A stretch of 64,000 bases of DNA from Chiloscyllium plagiosum (lineage: Eukaryota). Under the pieces are notes generated by a model. That model saw only the letters and a program-made list of their open reading frames with translations, did not search any database and was not told the DNA's origin. A program made the translations under genes and the position numbers. How positions within the stretch are numbered: position 1 is the stretch's first letter; each line of letters begins with the position of its first letter. Below are positions 11,028 through 60,491 of this stretch, one piece after another. The stretch lies in the NCBI RefSeq assembly GCF_004010195.1, contig NC_057752.1, forward strand, positions 826,123 to 890,122. Direction: 5' to 3'.

Positions 11028-12976
11028 TGAGGGGACAAAGCCATAGTTCTGAATATCTTATATACGTGGTGAAATGCTGCTCATTCCCATCAGCAAATTG
11101 TATTGTATATGTGCATTACCCCATTCTTTGTATGTGTAGGAGACCCACTCCAGTTTGGCTGATAGCTCCAAGCATTGAAAGGCACTCTGTAATGCTTGGA
11201 ATCCCCATCTTCATTCGAGTGTTTTACCAAGCACTGTACTTGGAATGTGAAATTTTTCACACACACAAGAATAGAAGACCCCTCTTCTAGCTTGTTTTGA
11301 AAATTTGGAATTTTCAGCTAAAGTTAAGATTAGCCTTTCACTCAAAGATGAAATAAACTAGCAGGGTCTTTGACTGATTAAAAATAGGGATGGAGTCAGC
11401 CTGCAGTTCATGTTTTGAGACCCCAAACCAAGTTTGTCATGTAAGCCCTGTCTGAAGATTCGTAGTCCATTGCTCTTGTGGCTCAGTGAGTACATTTTTT
11501 GTTCGGTGTTGGATTGAACCATTCCAATACAAAAATGTCCAATTCGATACCAGGTCATAGATTAGTTGAATGAGACACTGTGGGAGGTCATTCAGTCCAT
11601 TGTGTCCCTGCTGAAGGAACTGACTTCAGCCAGATAGGTTGTGGGGATATATGATTGGTTTTAGTGCTCCGCAATAGGGAACTTGATCAAATTTGGAGAA
11701 GATAAGTTAGGATTTTGGCTGCAATCTCTTGTCTCATTGGGCAAATAGTCTGTCTATGTTGAATGAGGGACCAAAAGCTGCCAGCTGCTGTTCAAGTTGT
11801 AGCCCAGCACCGTTCAGATGTGAGGAAGGGATAAAACAGTCACAATTCATACTCTTAAGTGTCATTGTTACCACCTAACTAGGAAGAGTGTGCTGATAAT
11901 TGTGCTCCTCTGTTCCACAAGGCATCACTGAATGTTTAAAGTTCCAATGAGACCCCCAAGATGTCCAATTTACTGAACTGATTGCTATTCAGGACAAAAT
12001 CAATTCATACCTGTTTTCATCATTAACAGAAAATAATGTTTTAAAACCACTTAACTTTCAGAAATGGCAGAGAAAAGAGGATTTCTAATGTGTTAGACTG
12101 AAGGGTCTGTTTCCATGCTGTTTAACTCTATGATAACAGAAATCCCTTTAAAACTCAAAATAAGTACATACTCATTAACGACTAAAACAAATGAAAGACA
12201 GACAGTTTGACATTGATATTATTGGTGGAAAAGAATATAGATATGCTGAGCAAAGTCTGGAAGTTCATAAGTTCAGATTTCAAGGGTAGGTTAGGTTGTC
12301 TCACATGGTTCCTCCTAATTTTTTTTTAGCAATGATGATATGCTGCTCTCTGTAGAGTGTTGTTTGTTCTTCACTTTGATAGTTGATCGAGCAGACCTGT
12401 ATTTTTCTTATTAGAATTCTTTCTTTTAAGCATTCTTGTTTTTTTTTCTGTCTTTTTTTTTTTAACCCCCACACAGAGGGAGAGAAAGATGGAGACATGT
12501 TCAGTTTGCAGGCTCTGGAAGTCTCTGCTGTCCTGGCACTTCCAGCTTTGTCACAAACTGCAGCCTAATTAATCAGAGGACTGTGTCATTACACAAAATC
12601 TCCTTAAATCATGGACTCTTAATATTAGTCTCAAATTTTATCTCCCTTACTGCTTTGAAAACAAAATTTTTCTGGCACAGCTAAAAATATGCAGCACTTT
12701 ATTTTTCCAAGTTGCAAAACTCTCCTAGTATTTAATATATGCACCTATCCAAATTCCATTTTGGTTGATAATCCTAAAAAAGATAAAATAGTGGTATCTT
12801 ACATCATTATTATGTCAAATATAGGTATTACCAAATCTCAGTTTTAAAATTAAAACAATTTTCAAGAAAATAGTTTAGAATCTGGGTGGGGGAAAGTTTG
12901 CATCAAGCACTTCCAACTCATGAATTCTCCCAAAAGAGGTTCACACACCTTGCCACTATCTAACAAAATTTCACCC

Positions 12977-14328
12977 TTTGCAATTTTTGTGAAGGTTTGT
13001 AGCTCGGATTGTAAGTGTGCTTGCTGAGCTGGAAGATTTATTCTCAGACGTTTCATCACCATGCTAGGTAACATTATCAATGAGCCTCCATTGAAGCACT
13101 GGTGTCCTGTCCCGCTCTCTATTTGTGTGTCTTGGTCTGTTACAGTGGGTGATATCCCTTCCGGTTCATTTTTTGAGAGGTTTGTAAATGGGGTCCAAAT
13201 CGATGTGTTTGTTAATGGAGTTCCAGTTTGAATGCCAGGCTTCTAGGAATTCCCATCCGTGTCTTTGTTTAGCCTGTTCCAGGATGTATGTATTGTCCTA
13301 GTCGAACTGGTGTCCCTCGTTGTCTGTGTCAATGACAAGCCGACAACCAAATCAATGGGACACCCATGGGATCACCAATATCAGGATTCTTGGCAGAAGT
13401 AACTTGCAGATGTTGGAATGAGCAACCCTCCCCACGATCCAGCTCAAGCTTTGGGTCCGCTATGTGGATGACACCTTTGTCATCATGAAATGGAACAAAT
13501 TAGAAAAAAACCACAAACACATAAACAACATCCTTACTGATATAAAGTTCACCAATGAGGAAGAGAACAACAATAGACTCCTCTTCCAGATGTCATTGTA
13601 GAACGAAAAGCTAACGGAGAGCTGCAGACCAGCGTCTACAAGAAAGCGACACATACTGACCAGATACTCAACTACAGGAGCAATTATCCCAACACCCACA
13701 AATGGAGCTGTATCAGGATATTATTTAAACGAGCCGCAATACACTGCAGCACCCAGGAACTATGGGATGCCGAAGAAAAACACCTATACAATGTATTCAG
13801 GAACAACGGGTAAGCACAGTCCACCGATTCTCACGCAACAAACGTAAACATGAATGTACAACACGCCCAGAGACTCTCGCCACACTACCACACATTAAAG
13901 ACATCTCAGACAACCAGACTACTCCAGCCCCTTGGCATCATGGTGGCTCACAAACCTACCAACACATTGAAACAACTCTTGATGAATCTAAAGGACCAGC
14001 AGAACAAACGTCACATCCAAAATACCCTGCAAGGACTGCAACAGACACTACATCAGACAGACTGGCCGGAAACTAGCCACCAAGATACATGAGCACAAGC
14101 TAATCACCAAAAGACATGACCAACTATCACTAGTATCTATACATTATAGACAATGAGGGACACCAGTTCAACTGGGACAATACATCCATCCTGGGACAGG
14201 CTAAACAAAGATACGCACGGAATTCCTAGAGGCCTGTCTTCAATGGAGGTTCACTGGTGAAATTATCTAGTATGGTGATGAAACATCTGAGAACAAACCT
14301 TCCATCTCAGCAAGCAAATTTACAACCT
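12977..14328. mobile_element. Penelope-like element (family A), inverted-repeat structure with RT/GIY-YIG remnants
   Basis: RT motif WVRYVDDTFV at ~13453-13485 (+). HKPTNTLKQ segment leads into the GIY-YIG region. Terminal repeats are inverted. 11-bp TSD AAATTTCACCC at 12966-12976 and 14329-14339. Confidence 0.88.
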
Positions 14329-14503
14329 AAATTTCACCCCTCTAGACACACTAACACAGTTACTGCTAGTCTCCTGTACAGCCACATTGTGAGTAGGCAC
14401 TTCAAGGCTTAAATACAACTTTGTCCACAAAATTGTTGAATTCTTGCTGTTTTAATCACTGGTCATAATTGCCAAGATATCACTATGACTTGTCCTGTTG
14501 TAG

Positions 14504-15868: not shown

Positions 15869-16313
15869 TTTTTTAATACAGTGTGGAAACAGGCCCTTTG
15901 GCCCAACAAGTCCACACCGGCCCTCCGAAGAGCAACCCACCCAGACCCATTCCCCTACATTTTACCTCTGACTAATGCACCTAATACTACGGGCAATTTA
16001 GCATGGCCAATTCACCTAACATGCACATCTTTGGACTGTGGGAGGAAATTTTCGAGGAGAAAGTGAGGACTGCAGACGCTGGAGATCAGAGCTGAAAATG
16101 TTTTGCTGGAAAAGGGCAGCAGGTCAGGCAGCATCCAAGGAGCAGGAGAATCGATGTTTCGGGCACGAGCCCTTCTTCAGGAATCAATTGTGGGAGGAAA
16201 CCCACTCAGACACGGGGAGAATGTGCAAACTCCACACAGACAGTTGCTCAAGACGGAATTGAACCTGGGTCCCTGACCCGGTGAGGCAGCAGTGCTAACC
16301 ACTGAGCTGCCCC
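15869..16313 (-). mobile_element. HE1-type tRNA-derived SINE (3' half of a 5S-HE1 chimera)
   Basis: Minus strand reads CAGTGGTTAGCACTGCTGCCTCAC (A box) and GGTTCAATTCC (B box), with tail GGCCTGTTTCCACACTGTA plus an A-run. Confidence 0.88.
16049..16188 (-). mobile_element. Short Penelope-like terminal repeat (family B) with hammerhead motif, inserted into the HE1 SINE
   Basis: 12-bp TSD TGTGGGAGGAAA at 16037-16048 and 16189-16200. Minus strand reads TC-CTGAAGA-A-GGGC-TCGT-GCCC-GAAAC-ATC-GA. Confidence 0.8.
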
Positions 16314-16318
16314 TTTTT

Positions 16319-16428
16319 AAAGCCTACTGCACCTGGTATTCCCAGGTAGTCTCCCATCCAAGTACTAACCAGGCCTGAGTCTGCTTAGCTTCCAAGATCA
16401 GACATTTTCAGATTAGTATGGCCATAGG
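16319..16428 (-). pseudogene. 5S rRNA-derived sequence (pseudogene or SINE3-like head)
   Basis: Plus strand AAGCCTACTGCACCTGGTATTCCCAGGTAGTCTCCCATCCAAGTACTAACCAGGCC...CTGCTTAGCTTCCAAGATCAGAC...GTATGGCCATAGG is the reverse complement of vertebrate 5S rRNA, with substitutions and a ~11-nt deletion. Confidence 0.92.
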
Positions 16429-17329
16429 TATCCTTGAGAAAAGGAACAGCTTTTAGGAAAAAAGGGACCAGCTTTGTGACACCCTGCACCACACAGACAG
16501 CAGCAGTCCAAGAAGGCAGCTCACCATCACCTTCTCAAGGGGTAACTAGGGATGGGGAATAAATGCTGGCTCAACCAGCGACTCCTATTAGTGAATTTAA
16601 AACAAAATCTTTTCATTTCTGCATTATAAAAACAGAATTTCTAATGAGTTTCTAATACAAGTTTGCCTCTATTTTCCAGTTTCTGTGAATTATTGGTCTG
16701 TTATATTGAACTGTATGATTTACTGATTAGCTTATTTTGTATAATTTGGTGGCCTGCATTCATATCACTCTACTGCAGAAACATCCAAATGCGCGTCACA
16801 TAATGAATTACTTTGAACGCCAACAACAGTTGTTATGCTTGCAAATATAGTGGTTGTTCTGAGCACAGCAAGTTGCCATAAGCAGAAATGAGACTGACAG
16901 CCAACTGTTCATAGTTTTAATGGAAGGAGGATTGTTGGCCAGCTCACGTAGAGAATATGCCTTGCTTTTCTTCAACTTCTTTCATAGGAAATTTAACATT
17001 AATTTTGACCACTGGAACTGGTTGACAAGACGTCAGTTTAACATCTAAACTGCAGAATGGCACTGCTGACAACACAGTACCTCCTGAGTGCTGCAGTGGT
17101 AATTAGCCACAATGTAAGAGGGAAATAGAAGTATAATTAGAAAAGATGTAGCCACTGACTGTTGGAATAGACGCATATTCTTGCAGCTGTATCCCATATG
17201 CTCCACTTAACAGACAATGATCAGAAAAAGAGTTCAATGTGTGAACAGCAGGACATTCTTCAAGTGTAAACAACAGGGATACTAGAGTAACCAATGAATA
17301 CATTAAATAAGATACAATAGTGATAGCAG

Positions 17330-33965: not shown

Positions 33966-34834
33966 AACTCAAACATACCCCTTAGGTGGTTTGAAAGAAT
34001 CTGTTAATGTTCACATTTTATACTCTGGTAACCTTCTACAGGAAGTGGTGTCCCTATCCCAGACATTGTGTGAAAGCCACTCTGTATTAGCATTGTTACA
34101 GCCTGCCTTATGGACTGTGATATGTCCAGACTTGTGTCGAGTGATCCCAAGGTAGTGATTTTGTTGCACTTGTATTTGTTTGTCCTTTATGAATTCCTCT
34201 TTCTTTCCTAAAGAAGCCTAACAGAACGTTGTGCACACCACTTTGGATGGTGTGGTTTGGTTATTAGCAGTTACCAAAAATAATGAAAGAAAGCTTTACC
34301 CTTTGATTTGGCATTCAAACTTCCATAACAAAAACAACTAATGTATGGAACCAAATGCAGCAAATTTGAACAAAAACAAAAACAAAATGTTTTAAGACCC
34401 GAAAGAATCTTATTGAGCAAGTCCCAGAATCCCCAAAACATTTGAATAAATATTTAATCTGCTTGCAGACAACACGTGTCACTTGAAGGGTCTAATTTTT
34501 CCTTCAAAATGAGTCATTAAAAAATTAAGTTTATTACACCTTCAGTGCATGGTTGAAAGACCAATTTATGCATGTGCCCAATGATAATGAGGCTCCATGC
34601 CTTGAGGTTACAGAGCTTTGTTTCCAACTTTAAAAATAAATAAAATGTGTTTCATATCAGAATTCAGTTTTGAGACTCTCAAAGAAGAGTTAATATTTTT
34701 GAATCAAATTATGCATTTTGCTGAGAACACAATTCATCTCCAAGGGACTGGACACTAACTTTCCATGCTGTACTCTTTATGACTGCACTTTGGAAATCCA
34801 TGTACAAAAGTCAAGCCTGATACTCTAGAACAGA

Positions 34835-35055
34835 GTCAAAAATCACATGACACCAGGTTACTTTGTGGTTTCAAATGAACCTGTTGGACTATAACCCGGT
34901 ATCATGTGATTTTTGCTTTTGCCCGAAACGTCGATTTTACTGCTACCTCGGATGCTGCCTGAACTGCTGTGCTCTTCCAGCATCTGCAGTCATTGTTTTT
35001 ACCAAGTTGATTTTTGACTTTGTCTACCCCACTCCAACACCGGCATTTCCACATG
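34835..35055. mobile_element. Nested Penelope-like terminal-repeat fragments (palindromic element with a family-B insert)
   Basis: Inverted pair AAAAATCACATGACACCAGGTTA / TAACCCGGTATCATGTGATTTTT. An internal GCCCGAAACGTCGA...GATGCTGCCTG piece is flanked by TGATTTTTG at 34907-34915 and 35008-35016. Confidence 0.6.
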
Positions 35056-36377: not shown

Positions 36378-36773
36378 GGCGCTCCCATGTGTCCGATGTA
36401 TGGAGTCCTCTTGGTCGATAGGGCGGCGCTCCTCGGTCTCGATGTATGGAGTCCTCCTGGTCGATAGGGCGGCGCTCCTAGGTCTCGATGTATTGAGTCC
36501 TCCTGTCGATAGGGCAGCGCTCATAGATCAGATGGGTTTGAGTCCTCCTGGCCGATAGGGCGGCGCTCCTCGGTCTCGATGTATTGAGTCCTCCTGGCCG
36601 ATAGGGCGGCGCTCCTAAGTCTCGATGTATTGAGTCCTCCTGGCCGATAGGGCGGCGCTCCTAGGTCTCGATGTATTGAGTCCTCCTGGCCGATAGGGCG
36701 GCGCTCCTAGGTCTCGATATATTGAGTCCTCCTGACCGATAGGGCGGCGCTCCTAGATCAGATGGGTTTGAGT
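36378..36773. repeat. 46-bp GC-rich minisatellite, ~8 copies
   Basis: Unit GATGTATTGAGTCCTCCTGGCCGATAGGGCGGCGCTCCTAGGTCTC starts at 36395, 36441, 36487, 36531, 36578, 36624, 36670 and 36716. Confidence 0.95.
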
Positions 36774-37027
36774 AGTGATGGTGCGTTGTGTTCAGGGTTA
36801 ATGTCTTTGATGTTTTTTAAACAGACTGTTTAACAGCTGTGGGCCTTGGATATATCGATGTTGCTATGGTGGTGAAAAGGCTTTAATTGTATTGTACTCC
36901 AGCCGGTAAGCGTGTGGAGAGGATGTGGTGAAGATGCACCGGGATTTATTTCCCCCGGCCTGGGACAGCCCTCGGGATCCCGAGTAAAACAAAATGTCTG
37001 AGCTTGTGAGGCTCTGCCTTTGTTACC

Positions 37028-37092
37028 GGGGCCGGGGCCGGGGCCGGGGCCGGGGCCGGGGCCGGGGCCCTGGCCCTGGCCCTGGCCCTGGC
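37028..37092 (+). repeat. (GGGGCC)7 followed by (CTGGCC)3-4 hexamer repeat
   Basis: Read directly: GGGGCC x7 at 37028-37069 and CTGGCC units at 37070-37092. Confidence 0.97.
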
Positions 37093-38842
37093 GGTAAGCG
37101 AGCTCCCTCTTGGCTACTTGCATATTCAGGCCCCTTGGCCGCGCTGTGAGACCTGTGCAGTCCTCCCACCTGTTCAGGAGCAGAGCCTTCGTGGGAGAGG
37201 GAGAAAGGGCTGTCACCTGCTTCCTGACACCAACTGACTGCACACCAGACAGACCTTCTCCTGGCACTCACTTCACACACACCCCCCCAGTCCCAACTAC
37301 ACTCGAGCTTAAAATATCCTCTTACCCGAAATCCAGGGGTTTATTGGGGAAGAGAATCGAATTTGTAGTGTCATGCCAATTTAGAGAAAAAATGAGCAAA
37401 AAGGAACTCTTATTGAATGTCTTTGCCATATAATATACCAAAGTAAATCATGCAAGCTGACCACTGCAGTTTTATTGCACTTAAATCCAGTGCTGTTTAT
37501 AATGGTATAACTGTCACCAGAATTAGCAGATCTTGGTTACTTGAAGTCTTAACATTTAAATTTAACAAAATTCAAAACATTTTTTATTTCACTTTAAAAA
37601 TCACCCTGCTTTACTTAACTTGAGCCCAGAGTGAAGTTCTACCTGTGAAGTGATTTAAGGAAAATCCAGTAAATTCTCATTTACTGCAATACCTCAACAA
37701 ATCCCATCTCAAAGGAAGGATTAAAGTTCAGGTAAAGTCAGTGAAAGCCAGTCATTTTTGCAAGCAGGTTTCAGAGTGCAAGAATGTGTTGAAGTCTGAT
37801 GTTTATGTAGTCCAAAGAGCTTCAAACTTGTAGATATTTTACGCTGATATTGGCAAACGCCTTGAAAGACTGCAGTGGTTTTTCTTTGCATTTCATTTTT
37901 CTTGTGGTTTGATTCAAAGAATAATGTAGTTTCATGCCATTTAAAAGCTTTATGAGGCATAGTTATGCTCATTTGGTCAGAAAAATCTTTGGAATTTACA
38001 TGAGAAATATTTTGTAATGTCGCATTGTTACAGTAAATCTGTGAATGAATTTTTCACAATTTCTGAATGCAATGTGAACTATTAAGAAATTAACACCAAA
38101 ACAATATTTGTGTTTTTGTATTATCTGCTTTTTAAATGTATAAAATTAAATCAAAGATGATATCAAAGATTAGTTTTTGCAGGAATAAAGGTTATGGAAT
38201 GCCAGCTTCTCAAAAGTGGATTCAAACTTTCAAACCGCCATGATGCGATTTGAACTAATACCTAGGCTTCTGCATAACTGGTCCAGTAGTACAACCTGTA
38301 TTTTTCATGTTCCTTAATATTAGGTTATTGATTGATTGTCAGTATTCAATATAACTACTTGCTATCTGCCCACTTGTCAAATCAGTAACTAACACCAGTC
38401 AGAAGATTGATTATGGGAATTTTTCAATTGAATGGCTCAGCTACCTCACATTAGCAAAGTTATCAGGGAGCCAAGATATAAATTCTGAAATGAACTTTTA
38501 TGTAATTTTCAGAGCTTTCACTAAAATATTTTACGAGACCTGTAGTAACAGGTTCTGCGTCTACTTGTGGGTATCTTGTTGAGAGATATTTTGAGAGAAA
38601 ATGCCATCAATGTTTGCTTAGTGGAACCTCTGGATGCTTCCAACAGCTGGTTAGGGAGTCATATTTAATTTGGCTCAATCAGGTTAAACTGATCACACAA
38701 CAAACAATTTTGAGATTTAGCACCCTCAGAACATTTACTTTTGAAATTTCTTGAAATATTCTCAACTTCTATTGTATACAATAACTCAAACAAAATTTTA
38801 GAAAATAAATCAGTGCAAAATTTGTGATATGAAGTGTATTTT

Positions 38843-39773
38843 GCAAGGTTTGTGAAGGTTTGTAGCTCAGGTTGAGATTTAGGGTGTAGGTTTGCTCGCT
38901 GAGCTGTAGGTTTGATATCCAGATGTTTCATTACCTGGCTAGGTAAAATCATCAGTGGCGATCTACAAGTGAAGCGAAGCTGTTGTCTCCTGCTTTCTAT
39001 TTATATCTTTCTCCTGGATGGGGTTCCTGGGGTTTGTGGTGATGTCATTTCCTGTTTGTTTTCTGAGGGGTTGATAGATGGCATCTAGATCTATGTGTTT
39101 GTTCAAAAAATGCAGTGCGCAGATTCCTCAAGAACAAACCACGACAAGCAGACCAAACACAGCCAGAAACCCTAACCACCTTACCATACATCAAAGAAGT
39201 TTCAGAAATGACAGCCAGACTACTAAGACCCCTCGGAATCCTAGTAGCGCACAAACCCACCAACACTCTCAAACAAAAACTAACAAACTTAAAAGACCCA
39301 GTACATCCCATGGACAAAACCAACGTCATCTACAAAATTCCATGCAAGGACTGCCACAAACACTACATAGGACAAATAGGAAGAAAGTTAGCCACCAGGA
39401 TACACGAACACCAGCTAGCCACAAAAAGACACGACCCCATCTCCCTCGTAGCCCTACACACGGATGAAAAAAGCCACCATTTCGACTGGGACAACACATC
39501 TATCCTGGGACAGGCTAAGCAAAGGCATGCCAGAGAATTCCTAGAGGCCTGGCACTCCCAACCACAATGCCATAAACAAACACACAGATCTAGATGCCAT
39601 CTATCAACCCCTCAGAAAACAAACAGGAAATGACATCACCAGATATAAATATAAATAGAAAGCAGGAGACAACAGCTTCGCTTCACTTGGAGGGCGCCAC
39701 TGATGATGTTACCTAGCCAGGTAATGAAACATCTGGATATCAAACCTACAGCTCAGCGAGCAAACCTACACCC
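38843..39773. mobile_element. Young Penelope-like element (family A) with GIY-YIG endonuclease fragment and inverted terminal repeats
   Basis: ORF 39115-39633 contains NVIYKIPCKDCHKHYIGQIGRKLATRIHEH (GIY-YIG). Inverted arms are near-identical. 13-bp TSD TGAAGT(G/A)TATTTT at 38830-38842 and 39774-39786. Confidence 0.92.
39697..39736 (+). ncRNA. Minimal hammerhead ribozyme motif in Penelope terminal repeat (mirror copy at 38919-38958 on -)
   Basis: CCA-CTGATGA-T-GTTACC-TAGCCA-GGTAAT-GAAAC-ATC-TGG: helix I CCA/UGG, intact core, helix II, AUC cleavage triplet. Confidence 0.72.
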
Positions 39774-40930
39774 TGAAGTATATTTTATTCAATGCAAAGG
39801 CTGATTAAGGTAATTGGAAAAGGAGGCTGAGGTAGGGAGATTTACTTGATGTGTAAAATTGAAAGTCCTAGATGGAGTGAATAAAAAATGAAGAAAATAA
39901 TCAGTACATCAATTTAAAATAATTGACACAAAGATTACAGAGAAGTTCAGGAAGTTTTCACCTTCAGGATGGTAGGGGTTTGGAATTCACTGTCTGAAAG
40001 AATGGTAGAGGCAGAAACCCTGAAGCAGATGGCCATCTCTTTGTTGTAAATTTTTTACCTTTCTTTTCAAGTTTCTTATCATTTGGATGTGAATAAACTG
40101 CAAACGAGATGGAAGAAAACTGATTTGGTTAGAGTACTAAGACTATTTTCAGTTAAACTCTGTTTGACGCAGTGTTCTGCTGGAAAGTGAATTCTATTTT
40201 TATTACAAAGTTCTAGGACCTTTCTTAATTGCTATTTTGGAGATTGTGTCCTTTTAATTCTCTAGTTGTAATACAGTTTTTTGAGTACGGGGAGCTCTGT
40301 TTTTATGACGTGGGTTATTGGGATTTTCAGCATGCTTTGGAGACAATGATAGTGTCTCATTTATTCTTGTAAAACTGCTCACTAGTTATCTTCAAGGATT
40401 TGTTTTTCACATTTATTCTGTGAATTATATTGAAGTAGTTGAGCAAGTTGGAAAAGATCTATTGGTTTCAGTAGACTTAATGCTCAACACTCCCAGTCAC
40501 TCTGGAACTGTAATCAACAAGAAAGTGAATATAAAATAGAATCAAACAGAATACAAGTCAGAGGAAGATAAGCTCAAATTGTATTCTTCTGGATATACCA
40601 CACTTTGAGTACTCTGTCCATCTCTGCCATTGTTTAGAAGATGGCATTGAAGGATGGGAATCTAATGATAGATGATTAATAAACTGCGAATATTACACCA
40701 CAGGAAAGCTGAAGATGTGAAAAATGCCTTAATTAAGACCATAAGACATAGGAGCGGAAGTAAGGCCATTCGGCCCATCGAGTCCACTCCGCCATTCGAT
40801 CATGACTGATGGGCATTTCAACTCCACTTACCCGCATTCTCCCCGTACCATTTAGGAAGTTATAGAATTGTAATTTAACAATTTTCCTTTTGTAGACCCA
40901 ATCAGTAAATTTGGCAGTGACAGCCTTTGA

Positions 40931-42505
40931 GAGAAAGTGAGGACTGGAGGTTAGAGGCGAGGTAGCATCCAAGGAACAGAAGAATAGATGTTTCGGGTAT
41001 AAGCCCTTCATCAAGGATGTGTGGGGGAAGGGGGCTGAGAGATAAATAGGAGGGTGGAGGTGGGAATTGGGAGGGGAAGTTAGCTGGGAAGGCGATGGGT
41101 AGATGCAGGTAGGGAGTGATAGGTCAGGGGAGGGTGGAGCAGATATGTGGGAAGGAAGATGGACAGGTAGGACAGTTCAAGAGGGCGGTGCTGAGTTGTA
41201 GGGTTGGATCTGGGATGAAGTGGGGAAATGGAAGGTAAGGAAACTGGTGAAGTCGATGTTGATGCCGTGTGGGTGAAGGGTCCCAAGTGGAAGATGAGGC
41301 ATTCTTCATTGGGTGGCTTGGTTTTGGTGGTGGAGGAGGCCCAGGACTTCCATGTCCTTGATGGAATGGAAAGGGGAGTTGATGTGGTCGGCCACAGGAC
41401 AGTGGGGTTGTTTGATGTGTGTGTCCCAGAGATGTTCCCTGAAACGTTTTCCGAGTTGGTATGCTGTCTCTCCAGTGTAAAAGAGACCACATCGAAAGCA
41501 ACAGACACAGTAGATGAGGTGTTGAGATGTGCAGGATAATCTCTACCAGATGTGAAAGGGTCCTTTGGGGCCTTGGACGGAGGTAAGGGGGTGGGGAGGT
41601 GTGGGTGCAGGTTTTATACCTCTTGCGGTGGCAAGGGAAGGTGCTGGGAGTGGAGGATGGGGGGGCGTGGACCTAATGAGACCCCACCACCAGAGATATA
41701 TTTCCCTCCTCACCCCTATCTGCGTTCCGCAGAGACCATTCCTTCCACGACTCCCTCGTTAGGTTCACGTTCCCTAACCAACCCACCTACCACTCCCAGC
41801 ACCTTGCCTTGCTGCCACAGGAGATGTAAAACCTGCACTCATACCTCCCCCCTCAACTCTGTCTAAGGCCCCAAAGGATGCTTTCACATCTGGCAGGGAT
41901 TTTCCTGCACATACAAACCCCTCATCTACTGTGTCTGTTGCTCTCGATGTGGTCTCCTCTATATTGGGGAGACAGGATGCCAACTCGCGGAGCGTTTCAG
42001 GGAACATCTTTGGGACATATGCACCATACAACCCCACTGCCCTGTGGCTGACCACTTCAACTTCCCCTCCCACTGCCAAGGATATGCAAGTCCTGGGCCG
42101 CCTCCACCACCAAATCCAAGCCACCTGACAACTGGAGGAAGAATGCCTCATCTTCTGCCATGGCATCAACGTCGACTTCACCAGTTTCCTTACTTCCCAT
42201 CCCCCACTTCATCCCAGATCCAACCCTCCAACTCGGCACTGCCCTCTAGAACTGTCCTACCTGTCCATCTTCCTTCCCACATATCCGCTCCACGTTCCCT
42301 TCTGACCTACCACTATCATCTCCCACCTGCGTCTACCTATAGCCTTCCCAGATATCTTCCACACACCCCCCAACCCCACCCTCCTATTTATCTCTCAGCC
42401 CACTTCCCCACATTCCTGATGAAAGGCTTATGCCTGAATCATCGATTCTCCTGCTCCTCAGATGCTGCCTGACCTGCTGTGCTTTTCCAGTACTACACTT
42501 TTAGA
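40931..42505. mobile_element. Older Penelope-like element (family B), long inverted structure with GIY-YIG remnants on both arms
   Basis: Plus arm IYCVCCSRCGLLYIGETGCQLAERFREHL (~41920-42010) has an inverted counterpart at ~41430-41520. 16-bp TSD CAGTGACAG(C/T)CTTTGA at 40915-40930 and 42506-42521. Confidence 0.88.
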
Positions 42506-43029: not shown

Positions 43030-43620
43030 TCCTTTGGCTTTGGAACTCTGACTCGGAAGGTGGTAGAAGGCAGTCATTATTTTTAAGATGGTGGTAGACA
43101 AATTCTTATTAGACAAGGGGAGGTTATTGGGGTTAGATGAGAATATGGAATACAGAACGCAAACAGATCAGCTGTGATCTGATTGAATGGTAAAACAGGC
43201 TCAAGTGGCCAAATTATCGTCATCTGCTCCTATTTTGTGTGTATGTTTATATGATAAATACTCCTTAAAACCTCTTTCACTAAGTGTTTGGTCACATTGC
43301 CTAATGCTATGTTAAGTTTTGTCTGATTATTCTTTGGGACTATGTTATTAGGTTAAAGGTGCTACAAGCAGCAACAGACTGTGTTATCTTAATGCCTTTC
43401 AGTTTTATTGATTTAATTTCAAGCCCTATGTTGGAATGCAAAGATCCATAAAGTTTTGAAAAATGTTATTTTTGTAAAATCTTGTAACGTGACTGACCTA
43501 ACTGTTCTCATTTGCAGGCTTGTCTTTATACAAGATAATGTTCATGGAACAGTGTAAGGCAAAGTACTTTATTGGCCAGCCAATTTGCATTTAGTGGAAG
43601 TTTCCAAAGCACTAACGGAG

Positions 43621-45759
43621 ATGGGTATGAGAATTAAACTACACAGTGCTGACCACCCTAATAACCTTCTTAAGGAACTTAATAAGTTTAGGTTGTCCGA
43701 AACCATGTGTGATGTAATCATCATGGTTGGCAACAGGACATTTTCAGCACACAAATCAGTGCTTGCATGTGCTGCTGGCTACTTCCAGAAGCTCTTTCTG
43801 AATTCTGAGGTTAATACTGCAAGAACATACGTGGTAGACTTCATCACCCCGGCAAATTTTGAAAGAATCTTGAATTTTATCTATACAGCTGAGCTTTTTA
43901 CTGATCTCATTAATGTTGGTGTTATCTATGAGATGGCAGAGAAGTTGGGAATGCAAGATCTTCTGAAGGCTTGCTACTCCACGTTTCCTGACTTGGAAAA
44001 GACAGAAACCAATAAACCAACAGATCAATCACCCGAAGGCTATGCACCTCTCACTGGGGCTTCAAATGACCAAAACACCCCCATGTCAGACTCCAGGGGC
44101 CCAGGCCCACAATTTTGTCAAAACAGAAGTTACATAATGCAGGTTGAAGTAGGAGAGAGTTTTAAAAGTGAAGAGCGAAATCTTGTGAATGAAAATGGCC
44201 CAAGTATGCCAGTGATGTACCAACAGTCAACAAAAACTGAAGATAACCTGGAGATGGAATACAGCCAATGCACAACAAGTGAGAATGTGCCTTTGACCTC
44301 TAATAAAGGCCCATGTGAGCTGTATGAAATACAGAGTAATGGATATTATAATCAAACCAGTTTACTGGTCACTGGAGAATCTCTCAAAGAGAGTAGTAAT
44401 TCCTGTGTCAGTAACAATGTCGACCTCCAGGTTCAATCAATGAAGGAAATGGAGTGCATGCAGTTTGATGGTATTGAACAGGATGGCCTTAATTTTGATG
44501 ACCATCAAGAGAGCAGAGGTCCTTCTGAAGAAATAATCGAGTTAACAGATGACAGTGAAGATGACAATCTTGTCTGTGTTAAGGATAGTAATGGTGAAGG
44601 TAAGAGTATGCCATGCCAGGTGTGTGGCAAGGTCTTGGCAGCCAACATAGGAATGATTAGGCAACACGGTAAACTCCACATTGATGCAAAAGAGGGGCTG
44701 TGTACTGTGTGTGGCGCCAAGTTCACTGATAGGAGCTCTCGAATCACCCATGTTTTGTCTCATGTTGGAATTTTTCTCTTCTCGTGTGACATGTGTGAAA
44801 TGAAATTTGTAACACAGTGGCAAGTGGCTGGACACAGGAAAGGGAAGCCACATGATGCTAACATTATTGTCCAACCAAATACCATCTTGCCTGCTGAAGC
44901 TAATTTTGGTGGCTCTCCCACAGAACTGTTTTGTGCTGTCTGTGGAAAGACAGTGACTAAAGACTATCTTGCTGTGAAAGACCATATCCTTTCCCATCTT
45001 GACATGAAAAGTCTCTCCTGTTGTGTCTGTGAGCAGCCATATAGATCAGTCTGTAGCTTAATGTGGCATGTTTTATCCCACATGAATATATCAATCTTTT
45101 CCTGTTCTGTATGTGGTAATAGCTTTGTAGACCGAACTGTTCTAGAGCAACATATGGCTTCACACCAGGGTATGGAGTATTTATATGAATGTAATTTCTG
45201 CTGTAGAAAGTTTCGGTTAGAAGCCTCTTATCAGAACCATGTGAAGATACATAAGAGGAATAACTTGGATGGCACAAAAGGTCTAACTACTCCACACCAG
45301 TGGCTCAAAAAAACCTTAACAACATCACCATCAGATGAGTCTACAAGTGATGGACATGTGCCTGGTGTACACCAAGAGACCCTTCTGACCCTTCCCTCAA
45401 ACCAAGGCAAAGCCAACTCCAAAGGGAACTGGTATGAATGTGAATTTTGTGGTAAAAGGTTTTCCCATTCTAGTGAGTTTCAGTATCATCTCCGAATCCA
45501 CTCAGGAGAGAAGCCCTATGAATGCAAGCTGTGCCACAAGTTCTTCAGGGGGCGATCGACTGTCAAAAATCATCTAAAGACTCATTCAGGTGCCCTTATG
45601 TATTGCTGCACGGTTTGCCAGAAGTATTGTCCCACCTTGAACCTTATGATTAAACATGTGGAGATGCACAAAGATGGGGGCCTACCTCCTGACTTTAACA
45701 TTGCACAGACATTCATGTACATCGTGCATTCCAAACAGTCAGTAAAAATGATGGACTAA
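43621..45759 (+). CDS. ZBTB39: Zinc finger and BTB domain-containing protein 39 (712 aa, single coding exon)
   Basis: Starts MGMRIKLHSADHPNNLLKELNKFRLSETMCDV, nearly identical to the recalled ZBTB39 N-terminus. BTB domain, multiple C2H2 fingers, HSGEKPY linker and C-terminal LPPDFNIAQTFMYIVHSK. Splice acceptor tttgcag ends at 43517. AATAAA at 45826. Confidence 0.95.
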   Translation: MGMRIKLHSADHPNNLLKELNKFRLSETMCDVIIMVGNRTFSAHKSVLACAAGYFQKLFLNSEVNTARTYVVDFITPANFERILNFIYTAELFTDLINVGVIYEMAEKLGMQDLLKACYSTFPDLEKTETNKPTDQSPEGYAPLTGASNDQNTPMSDSRGPGPQFCQNRSYIMQVEVGESFKSEERNLVNENGPSMPVMYQQSTKTEDNLEMEYSQCTTSENVPLTSNKGPCELYEIQSNGYYNQTSLLVTGESLKESSNSCVSNNVDLQVQSMKEMECMQFDGIEQDGLNFDDHQESRGPSEEIIELTDDSEDDNLVCVKDSNGEGKSMPCQVCGKVLAANIGMIRQHGKLHIDAKEGLCTVCGAKFTDRSSRITHVLSHVGIFLFSCDMCEMKFVTQWQVAGHRKGKPHDANIIVQPNTILPAEANFGGSPTELFCAVCGKTVTKDYLAVKDHILSHLDMKSLSCCVCEQPYRSVCSLMWHVLSHMNISIFSCSVCGNSFVDRTVLEQHMASHQGMEYLYECNFCCRKFRLEASYQNHVKIHKRNNLDGTKGLTTPHQWLKKTLTTSPSDESTSDGHVPGVHQETLLTLPSNQGKANSKGNWYECEFCGKRFSHSSEFQYHLRIHSGEKPYECKLCHKFFRGRSTVKNHLKTHSGALMYCCTVCQKYCPTLNLMIKHVEMHKDGGLPPDFNIAQTFMYIVHSKQSVKMMD

Positions 45760-56632: not shown

Positions 56633-56707
56633 GTATGAATCTCTCTGAGGCATAAAACAGTACCATCTATTACAGTGGTGTCTCAGTATCAGCTCTTTCA
56701 CATGTAC

Positions 56708-57663
56708 AGGGTGTAGGTTTGCTCGCTGAGCTGGAAGGTTCATTTCCAGATGTTTTGTCACCCTACTAGGTAACATCCTCAGTGGGCCTCCGGGCGAAGC
56801 ACTGCTGCTGATTCCTGCTTTCTATTTATATGTTTGGGTTTCTTTGGGTTGGTGATGTCATTTCCTGTGGTGATGCCATTTCCTGTTCTTTTTCTCAGGG
56901 GGTGGTAAATGGGATCCAAGTCAATGTGTTTGTTGGTGGCATTCCAACCAGAACTCTATGCTTCTAGGAATTCTCGTGCGTGTCTCTGTTTGGCTTGTCC
57001 TAGGATGGATGTGTTGTTCCAGTTGAAGTGGTGTCCTTCCTTATCTGTATGTAAGGATACTAGTGAGAGGGTCATGTCGTTTTGTGGCTAGTTGATGTTC
57101 ATGTATCCTGGTGGCTAATTTTCTGCCTGTTTGTCCAATGTAGTGTTTGTTACAGTCCTTGCATGGTATTTTGTAAATGACATTAGTTTTGCTTGTTGTC
57201 TGTGTAGGGTCTTTCAAGTTCATGAGCTGCTGTTTTAGTGTGTTGGTGGGTTTGTGGGTTACCATGATGCCAAGGGATCTGAGTAGTCTGGCAGTCATTT
57301 CCAAGATGCCTTTGTAGGGGAGAGTGGCTAGGGTTTCTGGACGTGTTTTGTCTACTTGTTTAGATTTGTTGCTGAGATATCGGCGGACTGTGTTCATTGG
57401 GTACCCATTCTTTTTGAATACACGGTATAGGTGATTTTCCTCTGCTCTGTGTAGTTCCTCTATGCTGCAGTGTGTGGTGGCTTGTTGAAATAATGTTCTG
57501 ATGCAGCTTCATTTGTGGATGTTGGGATGATTGCTTCACCTGGAGGCCCACTGAAGATGTTACCTAGTCGGGTGACGAAATGTCTGGAAATGAACCTTCC
57601 AGCTCAGCAAGCAAACCTACATCCAGAACCTCAACCTGAGCTACAAATCTTCTCAAAACTCGC
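56708..57663. mobile_element. Penelope-like element (family A), GIY-YIG on minus strand, inverted terminal repeats
   Basis: Minus ORF 57041-57397 contains NVIYKIPCKDCNKHYIGQTGRKLATRIHEH. Hammerhead-like motifs at 56746-56785 (-) and 57548-57587 (+). Confidence 0.9.
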
Positions 57664-58255
57664 TTTACGTATACAGTATGCAGTCGGTAACAGGGAATGA
57701 TTCACTCCCAACTGGTACAGTATGGTCTCTGTGTGTGCTAGTATTATGTCCTGTACGAACACGGGTCGACCCGCTCAATTAACTAGACGGCTGTTTTGTG
57801 ATGCCGAGTAACGCAAACACCGGTTGTTCAATTTCTGCACTGGCTGAGGTTGCCATGAAGGACTCTCCTCCTCAACCTCACCCCTTGCCTGAGGTGTCAT
57901 GACCTTCAGGCTAAAACGCCACCAGTTATGGACTATGGCAGATTTACCTTTTATATGTACACGACACTGTGGGTAAAAGAGAATGATTCACTCCCGTCTG
58001 GTACAGTACATGCAGGGTGTGTCTCAGTTTCAGCTACTGTACATGTACGCTATACTGTGAATAGAAGGGTATGATTTACTCCTGTCTGGTACCATATGAT
58101 GTGTCTGTGTTAGTTCCTGTAGATATAGAGTACTCAGGTAAACAGGATGGAATCATTTCGCCTGGTACAGTATGTGTCTCTGTCTCAGCTCCTGCACATG
58201 TACAGTACACAGTGGAGAAAAGAGAGCGGTTCATTCTCACCGGGTGCTGTAGTCA
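57664..58255. repeat. Degenerate ~75-90 bp tandem repeat interrupted by a SINE
   Basis: Recurring GATTCACTCCC(G/A)..TGGTACAGTA...GTCTCAG..CCTGTACATGTAC units at ~57699, 57986, 58073 and 58153. Similar sequence lies at ~56660-56708. Confidence 0.6.
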
Positions 58256-60000: not shown

Positions 60001-60034
60001 GTTCCACAAAGCAGACTTGTGAGCAAAGTTAGAG

Positions 60035-60351
60035 CTTAGCGAGTTTTAAGAAGATTTGTAGTTCAGGTTGAGGTTTTGGATGTAGGTTTGTTCACTGAGC
60101 TGCAAGGTTCATTTCCAGATGTTTTGTCACCCTATTAGGTAACATCTTCAGTGGGCCTCCGGGCGAAGCAAAGAACAGGAAATGACATCACTACTGGAAA
60201 TGATGTCACCAACCAAAGAAACCCAAAGATATAAATAGAAAGCAGAAATTATTAGCAGTGCTTCGCCAGAGGCTCACTGAAGATGTTACCTAGTAGGGTG
60301 ATGAAACGTCTGGAAATGAACCTTCCAGCTCAGCGAGCAAACCTACATCCA
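60035..60351. mobile_element. Non-coding palindromic Penelope-derived mini-element (two inverted family-A terminal repeats)
   Basis: Inverted arms, no ORF. 10-bp TSD AAAGTTAGAG at 60025-60034 and 60352-60361. Confidence 0.88.
60274..60313 (+). ncRNA. Best-preserved minimal hammerhead ribozyme motif
   Basis: TCA-CTGAAGA-T-GTTACC-TAGTAG-GGTGAT-GAAAC-GTC-TGG: full core, GUC triplet, palindromic ACGU in place of helix III. Confidence 0.78.
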
Positions 60352-60491
60352 AAAGTTAGAGGTCATACAATAAAGGGGACATCTGTAATGTGTATACAAA
60401 ATTGACTGACATAGTAACCACAGAGTAACATATAAAGGACATTTCTGGGGCTTGAGTCAGATTTGTTGTGGAGTTCTCTAGGGGTCACTAT

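Follow-up and report, generated by a model that had tools for sequence, protein, structure and literature searches.

At positions 60274-60313 of the window, the 64,000-nucleotide stretch of Chiloscyllium plagiosum DNA analysed here, the plus strand carries a short motif that resembles a hammerhead ribozyme, and related motifs lie on both strands of the same stretch. What kind of element brought these motifs here, are the copies in the window working ribozymes, and has the family left any trace of having cut RNA in the animal?

A complete minimal hammerhead motif at 60274

Read directly from the sequence, 60274-60313 (+) runs UCA / CUGAAGA (60277-60283) / U / GUUACC / UAGUAG / GGUGAU / GAAAC (60303-60307) / GUC (60308-60310) / UGG; all the parts claimed in a first-pass annotation of this DNA are present as it listed them, and the cut that it expected after GUC at 60310 follows from the predicted hammerhead fold. 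These parts form a 3-bp helix I (UCA/UGG), a 6-bp helix II with a 6-nt loop, and one bulged U after A9, and the type-I order of the core, CUGANGA ... GAAA ... UH, is complete at 60274, with the conserved bases kept in four of the eight copies in the window. We find that 96% of helix cells pair, compared with 27-42% in slid controls; the 10.1-11.1 pair is G-U at 60274 and in the majority of subfamily A2, and G-C in the majority of A1a, A1b, and A4. Helix III is absent, and the sequence ACGU, palindromic at 15.1-16.1, predominates in its columns in each of the four subfamilies and is kept in two of the eight window copies. Since motifs of this kind have no helix III, the absence of any hammerhead match at E ≤ 5 in an Rfam scan of the window is expected; a PDB sequence search gave no match.

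Minimal hammerheads have been known in Penelope-like elements (PLEs) since 2014, and these motifs are of the same known kind. They share with the min-HHR of Cervera & De la Pena (2014, PMC4209133) a type-I core, a long helix II, a short helix I, one extra base between A9 and G10.1, and a palindromic 15.2-16.2, as well as the occurrence of many sequence families per genome, mostly truncated copies, and opposite-strand pairs 100-700 bp apart; min-HHR are reported there in the Xena, Poseidon, and Neptune elements of fish. The 3-bp helix I of the shark motif is listed as a difference from that work, of which the accessible text and two supplements name no sharks, and copy number is higher in the shark, where our own looser descriptor counts ~77,000 core-intact motifs per Gb, all families together, against ~4,000 (coelacanth) and ~9,000 (Xenopus) per genome by a different one. 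The dimer-cleaving PLE hammerheads of Lunse, Weinberg & Breaker (2017) are, going by the paper's title and a summary of it in a review, of the same motif class and proposed dimer mechanism, and minimal PLE hammerheads are described as having low activity as dimers. A literature search, with Repbase and Dfam outside its scope, returned no paper naming these shark families and none on truncation at the cut.

Eight copies form four inverted two-arm insertions

Self-BLAST and a fuzzy pattern search find exactly eight family-A copies in the window, where the first-pass annotation had placed them, and none in shuffled controls; that reading stands for the positions but not for eight independent copies, which resolve into four inverted two-arm insertions flanked by target-site duplications (Table 1). 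In each, the truncated 5′ ends of a left-hand minus arm and a right-hand plus arm meet, and a 10-13 bp duplication lies outside. The variable core position N7 is A, U, or G and helix II pairing is mostly kept, as had been noticed, with six of six pairs in seven copies and five of six in one. Copy-by-copy inspection confirms the core changes in the four copies described as decayed (13045, ~14252, 56746, and 60115). The three others described as core-intact, at 39697, 38919, and 57548, do retain the conserved bases, but not ACGU (ACAU, ACAU, and AUGU, respectively), and 38919 also has G10.1>U; core and ACGU are found together only at 60274, one of the eight.

Both anatomy and element context bear out the assignment to minimal type-I hammerheads in Penelope-like terminal repeats. 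The motif is very probably a minimal type-I hammerhead in the pseudo-LTR of a Penelope/Poseidon-type retrotransposon, and its eight copies the ends of four truncated inverted insertions, likely inactive relics.

Table 1. Family-A insertions in the window, with their target-site duplications, hammerhead motifs, and reading-frame remnants
Feature	Position	Strand	Remarks
Insertion 1 (subfamily A1b type)	12977..14328		Inverted arms; minus-arm tail partly deleted
Target-site duplication, insertion 1	12966-12976 and 14329-14339		11 bp
Hammerhead motif, decayed	13044..13083	-	C3>U, G8>A
Hammerhead motif, decayed	14251..14290	+	A6>G, ACAU
Insertion 2 (subfamily A2)	38843..39773		Inverted arms; tail on minus arm
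Target-site duplication, insertion 2	38830-38842 and 39774-39786		13 bp (12/13 alike)
Hammerhead motif, core bases intact	38919..38958	-	G10.1>U, ACAU
188-aa remnant frame	39067..39633	+	Thumb and endonuclease end of element
Hammerhead motif, core intact	39697..39736	+	ACAU
Insertion 3	56709..57663		Inverted arms; tail on plus arm
Target-site duplication, insertion 3	56697-56708 and 57664-57675		12 bp, decayed (9/12 alike)
Hammerhead motif, decayed	56746..56785	-	G12>A, ACAU
155-aa remnant frame	57041..57508	-	Weak GIY-YIG match, E 9e-4, under Pfam cut-off
Hammerhead motif, core intact	57548..57587	+	Palindrome AUGU (wobble only)
Insertion 4	60035..60351		Two head-to-head 5′-truncated arms: minus arm ~60035-60171 with tail, plus arm ~60172-60351 without tail
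Target-site duplication, insertion 4	60025-60034 and 60352-60361		10 bp
Hammerhead motif, decayed	60115..60154	-	G12>A, ACAU
Minimal hammerhead motif (subfamily A1)	60274..60313	+	Every conserved core base and ACGU present; predicted cut after C60310
AUG within motif (A9-bulge U-G10.1)	60283..60285	+	Opens the element's reading frame in ORF-bearing copies

Genome-wide, the exact core-plus-ACGU pattern has at least 4,740 matches (reversed control, 0) and a looser pattern that includes subfamily A4 and CpG decay has 17,939 (controls, 0). Eighty 10-kb stretches at round coordinates, 779 kb in all, contain 22 family-A motifs, which extrapolates to roughly 10^5 family-A copies per genome, a number that makes the mechanics of PLE insertion countable and the shark genome useful as a data set. 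Per 64 kb, fuzzy patterns applied to 75 of these stretches (C43 left out) give 1.6 motifs of family A, 4.8 of B, 0.5 of B2, and 1.9 of C, a sum of 8.9, compared with 11 in the window. Because random stretches give a similar number, the density here is ordinary, and we reject the idea that the window is unusually rich in all families together; the dense, multi-family ribozyme-retroelement set proposed at first pass is a property of the genome, not of this stretch in particular. For family A, four insertions in 64 kb are a mild local excess (Poisson P 0.045, or 0.10 when 20 kb of flanking sequence, which holds none, is included).

The motif overlaps the start of the element's reading frame

Along most of its length, the 188-aa frame in insertion 2 matches carpet-shark proteins at 61-89% identity, some of which carry RVT_1, and it has 86,339 first-look candidates in the same genome. 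In a longer genomic copy, L037, RVT_1 (E 2e-8) and the motif IY..C..C...YVGQT...R..EH are found in one 370-aa frame, in which the endonuclease (EN) end lies downstream of the reverse transcriptase (RT); the GIY-YIG Pfam match is weak. An extra Zn-finger-like RT-EN linker is a feature of Neptune and Nematis (PMC8557442), and no such cysteine cluster between RT and EN is seen by eye in P0020; because this linker is missing, the element fits the Penelope/Poseidon group, in a placement made by motifs and not by tree, as none of the protein matches bears the name of a clade. Conservation across sharks was judged from protein matches and from aligned contigs. Twelve stretches picked for long frames contain no complete unbroken element, and what looked like a '900-aa' frame at C9 is explained by a gap in the assembly.

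In partial tandems the motif comes after the GIY-YIG frame and overlaps the ORF start, the AUG made up of A9, the bulged U, and G10.1 opening the element frame (273 aa in L119). Helix II, GAAAC, and GUC coincide with codons 1-10, and the ORF covers two thirds of the motif. Copies have two discrete ends, ~41 nt (without tail) and ~78-85 nt (with tail) past the predicted cut. The arrangement resembles that of PAc, the Poseidon element of Anolis carolinensis (Frangieh et al. 2024, PMC11167929), where the ORF start codon also lies at the start of stem II, 26 nt ahead of the cut as compared with 28 nt ahead of the predicted cut in the shark, and where two internal RT start sites likewise define an optional tail, of 30-40 bp, with uncut RNA as the main template.

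Several further features of the element were noted. In the pseudo-LTR (window 60170-60210; L037:6190-6290), a TATAAATA box lies ~80 nt ahead of the predicted cut, and that of A2 has an initiator-like TCACT ~50 nt ahead of it; the 5′ ends of ORF-bearing copies do not pile up at the TATAAATA box or at TCACT. Pieces of the element occur inside predicted shark host proteins (P0008, P0016, P0018, and P0019; MAP3K7, CUEDC2, EYA3-like, and WBP2-like), through exonisation or annotation error. Outside sharks, the named sequences most similar to the RT-EN frame (P0021-P0076) come from tapeworms and a liver fluke, at 42-52% identity, which may reflect database bias or an old transfer.

Neutral decay among copies, constraint between subfamilies

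Conservation was compared within subfamilies at non-CpG positions, using 97 copies not selected on the core from 117 aligned. Departures from the column majority make up 36 of 1080 core cells (3.3%) and 111 of 2739 flank cells (4.1%; p = 0.35), and because the two differ alike, genomic copies decay neutrally after insertion. CpG positions differ from the majority in 22-27%, and core and ACGU are kept in only 28 of the 117 aligned copies; the CpG in ACGU and that before G12 explain most of the copies called decayed. Most differences between copies are subfamily differences or CpG decay and do not indicate selection on the window copies. Recurrent short core deletions at direct micro-repeats were seen at L256, L258, L265, and L230.

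Comparison between the four subfamilies gives a different picture, with 11 of 12 core columns fixed and 0 of 11 upstream flank columns; the twelfth core column, G12, is a CpG tie in six A4 rows and is G in the looser-pattern listing. Core conservation above the flank, on which the first-pass proposal had staked itself, is thus missing among genomic copies and present between subfamilies. The outer pair of helix I covaries, being C-G in eight subfamily rows, U-A in five, and G-C in two, in a count made on 17 hand-picked related rows, whose shuffle figures are hence not probabilities. The bases fixed across subfamilies include C3, U4, G5, A6, and G8, upstream of the AUG, together with U16.1 and A15.1, at third codon positions, and because bases ahead of the AUG and silent third positions are among them, the pattern points to RNA-level constraint in the source elements. 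Part of the conservation may be protein-level, given that helix II, GAAAC, and GUC overlap coding sequence.

Inverted arms and the one-tail rule

Across all the loci compared, 60 of 68 adjacent motif pairs are oriented minus-then-plus. Six of these could not be scored for tails, which left 54, and with 11 from ORF-selected loci set aside, 43 were counted; the ~36-nt tail is on exactly one arm in 41 of the 43, and in the other two, inspected by eye, one arm has a tail that is partly deleted. Identical flank words of 10-16 nt are shared by 26 of the 43 pairs and by 0 of 300 mismatched pairings. An inverted 5′-truncated arm, a one-sided tail, and a short target duplication have been described qualitatively in canonical EN+ PLEs (Arkhipova et al. 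2013, PMC3846280; Craig et al. 2021, PMC8557442), which also have 8-10 bp target duplications, a pLTR with the first ~12 codons, and palindromes at the inverted junction; beyond the accessible parts of these accounts, the shark insertions provide a counted one-tail rule (41/43) and junctions mapped relative to a predicted ribozyme cut.

In PAc the tail marks two RT start sites (PMC11167929). We propose that in the shark the element's protein would make a staggered cut in target DNA, that each target 3′ end would prime reverse transcription at one of two internal start sites, and that both cDNAs would stop early and then be joined head to head. The source elements would be head-to-tail partial tandems, in which two same-strand motifs could pair through ACGU and cut after GUC, a cleavage that is probably weak and aided by the element's protein; cleavage of the upstream motif would also take away the AUG. 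Because the cDNA runs through the motif, most of it would be templated by uncut RNA, with on the order of 1% seemingly derived from cut RNA. Once inserted, the motif decays at the neutral rate, quickest at the CpG of ACGU. If the junction reading set out below is true, the strict one-tail rule would tie insertion to two primers and two start sites. Partial tandems, with same-strand motifs spaced 0.4-1.4 kb, are found at L114, L115, L117, L121, and L125, where a cis dimer is possible.

An excess of arms begins at the predicted cut

Arms starting just past GUC were a first lead from a search set that lacked intact A2 copies and gives no denominator. The junction test used downstream anchors, with filters rejecting intact copies, on the first 100 of 552 A1 and the first 61 of 134 A2 places. 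With 59 internal deletions removed, 20 of 101 arms start at +1 under strict matching, against 6.9 expected from a uniform null plus chance matches (p = 1.4e-5), and 22 of 101 do so when one mismatch is allowed; by strict matching A1 contributes 10/56 and A2 10/45. A count by eye, at loci that partly overlap the strict set, places 12 of ~56 at +1 over the range -10 to +9. The effect is about threefold and affects on the order of 1% of arms, an estimate that has no exact denominator. Sixteen of the +1 arms have an inverted partner, with no microhomology in 12 and the partner also at +1 in five; L281 is a sixth insertion with both arms at +1, and in some insertions the two arms form a perfect head-to-head palindrome whose centre is the predicted cut.

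These data suggest that the genome may preserve a fossil trace of in vivo cleavage by Penelope hammerheads, a reading to which we give an even chance. The excess of arms at the base after GUC, which arises independently in two subfamilies, would represent cut 3′ fragments that kept both RT start sites and were copied into cDNA and inserted at each end of a single staggered cut in the target. If true, this would be the first genomic evidence of these weak ribozymes cutting in the germ line: the accessible parts of PMC4209133 and PMC11167929 report no evidence of in vivo cleavage of PLE hammerheads, and PMC8557442 calls their function unclear. Cleavage of PAc has been shown in vitro, where it is protein-assisted and is not required for insertion (PMC11167929); PAc has no RNA ends at the cut in that report, whereas in the shark a minority of genomic copies start there. 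The junction excess and the one-tail rule make both in vivo cutting and double-ended priming directly testable.

The main alternative is that the motif is kept as a structured signal, for translation start, protein binding, or RT pausing, and has lost its cutting activity in this lineage, with the pile of 5′ ends produced by RT stalling or local joining preferences. It would be consistent with the ORF overlap over two thirds of the motif, with an inactive predicted fold of the monomer, and with the PAc results just cited (PMC11167929). Single-position lumps also occur away from the cut: nine of ~44 truncations fall at one position in a control window 60-75 nt upstream (by eye; 11 scorable among its 30 loci), and A2 has a second, smaller pile at -3 (5/45). 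We nevertheless consider this alternative as a whole improbable, because subfamilies share the fixed bases C3, U4, G5, A6, and G8 ahead of the AUG as well as U16.1 and A15.1, at third codon positions, helix I covaries, and the joints at +1 mostly have no microhomology (12/16) and in five of 16 cases involve both arms. RT stalling at the structure may still account for the pile itself.

Other features of the junctions were as follows. Symmetric joints are also found at +2, +3, and +8, and junctions 5′ of the predicted cut are depleted in A1 (3/56, expected 15.8) but not in A2 (9/45, expected 12.1). The 5′ ends of 30 ORF-bearing copies are spread from -1325 to +21, with one (L136) at +1, a spread that gives no support to a fixed transcription start, or to the cut, as the point where full-length copies begin.

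The window copies are probably not working ribozymes

Cleavage in source elements, as favoured above, is distinct from activity of the copies in the window, which might be imagined to cut host transcripts or to pair as dimers. The motif at 60274 is fully intact, family-A insertions are locally somewhat more frequent than the genome average (Poisson P 0.045; 0.10 if flanks are counted), and family RNA is present in a related species. The partners of each pair sit on opposite strands, however, so the window motifs cannot dimerise in cis, and they are predicted to be locked in a hairpin: the read-through RNA of insertion 4 folds into a single long hairpin with a helix II probability of 0 on either strand. 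Two further predictions also count against the hammerhead reading of the family itself: the strand-swapped dimer comes out at -6.7 kcal/mol compared with -20.8 for the co-fold minimum, and in the predicted minimum-energy fold of the 60274 monomer GAUGU pairs with ACGUC, which is not a hammerhead. The core or the palindrome is lost in seven of the eight copies, and core conservation among genomic copies is not in excess of the flank.

In one single-cell poly(A) run from a related species, 240 reads align to 60172-60460 at 85% likeness, and almost all of them derive from other copies. No pile-up of RNA ends is listed at the predicted cut, where depth is continuous across the site, in agreement with PAc but a weak test given a fragmented poly(A) library from a related species. 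CpG-decayed alleles make up 35 of 149 and 44 of 160 in the reads, against 23% and 32% in a large contig set; being about as common in both, they give no support to an enrichment of intact cores among transcribed copies. Working ribozymes in the window are largely refuted by the conservation comparison and the copy-by-copy and folding results, and are very unlikely, and the dimer system suggested by the first-pass annotation does not hold up here.

To the idea that these are non-LTR retrozymes, tandem non-coding repeats that give small circular RNAs, we attach next to no weight and rule it out for the window, since no tandem array there contains the motif and all four pairs are inverted, two with endonuclease-frame remnants, even though retrozymes derive from PLE pseudo-LTRs and are reported in one cartilaginous fish genome (bioRxiv 10.64898/2026.07.22.740005, as far as its accessible part goes) and same-strand pairs at 0.4-1.4 kb spacing occur at a few other places in this genome.

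Other features of the window

A second PLE family forms an inverted pair at 40960-42502, with arms 80% alike; family-B hammerheads, both decayed, lie in it at 41013 (-) and 42413 (+), and the frame at 41867-42472 weakly matches GIY-YIG. A spurious MIR1858 match arises from this inverted repeat. Further family B/B2 remnants or tails lie at 16183 (-), 29037 (+)/29036 (-), 34920 (+), 36362 (-), 46810 (+), 3360 (-), 35526 (-), and 25111 (+), with the core kept only at 16180 and 46810, and family C is represented in the window only by tail remnants near 34830-35038. A 733-aa open frame at 43558-45759 (+), with BTB and C2H2 zinc-finger domains (Pfam), is a ZBTB-type host gene exon. A 5S rRNA-like sequence at 16321-16429 (-), scoring 70 bits with an 11-nt deletion, is a pseudogene or a SINE head. 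Finally, a 46-bp tandem array of eight copies spans 36378-36756, and a (CCGGGG)7 run lies at 37026-37092.
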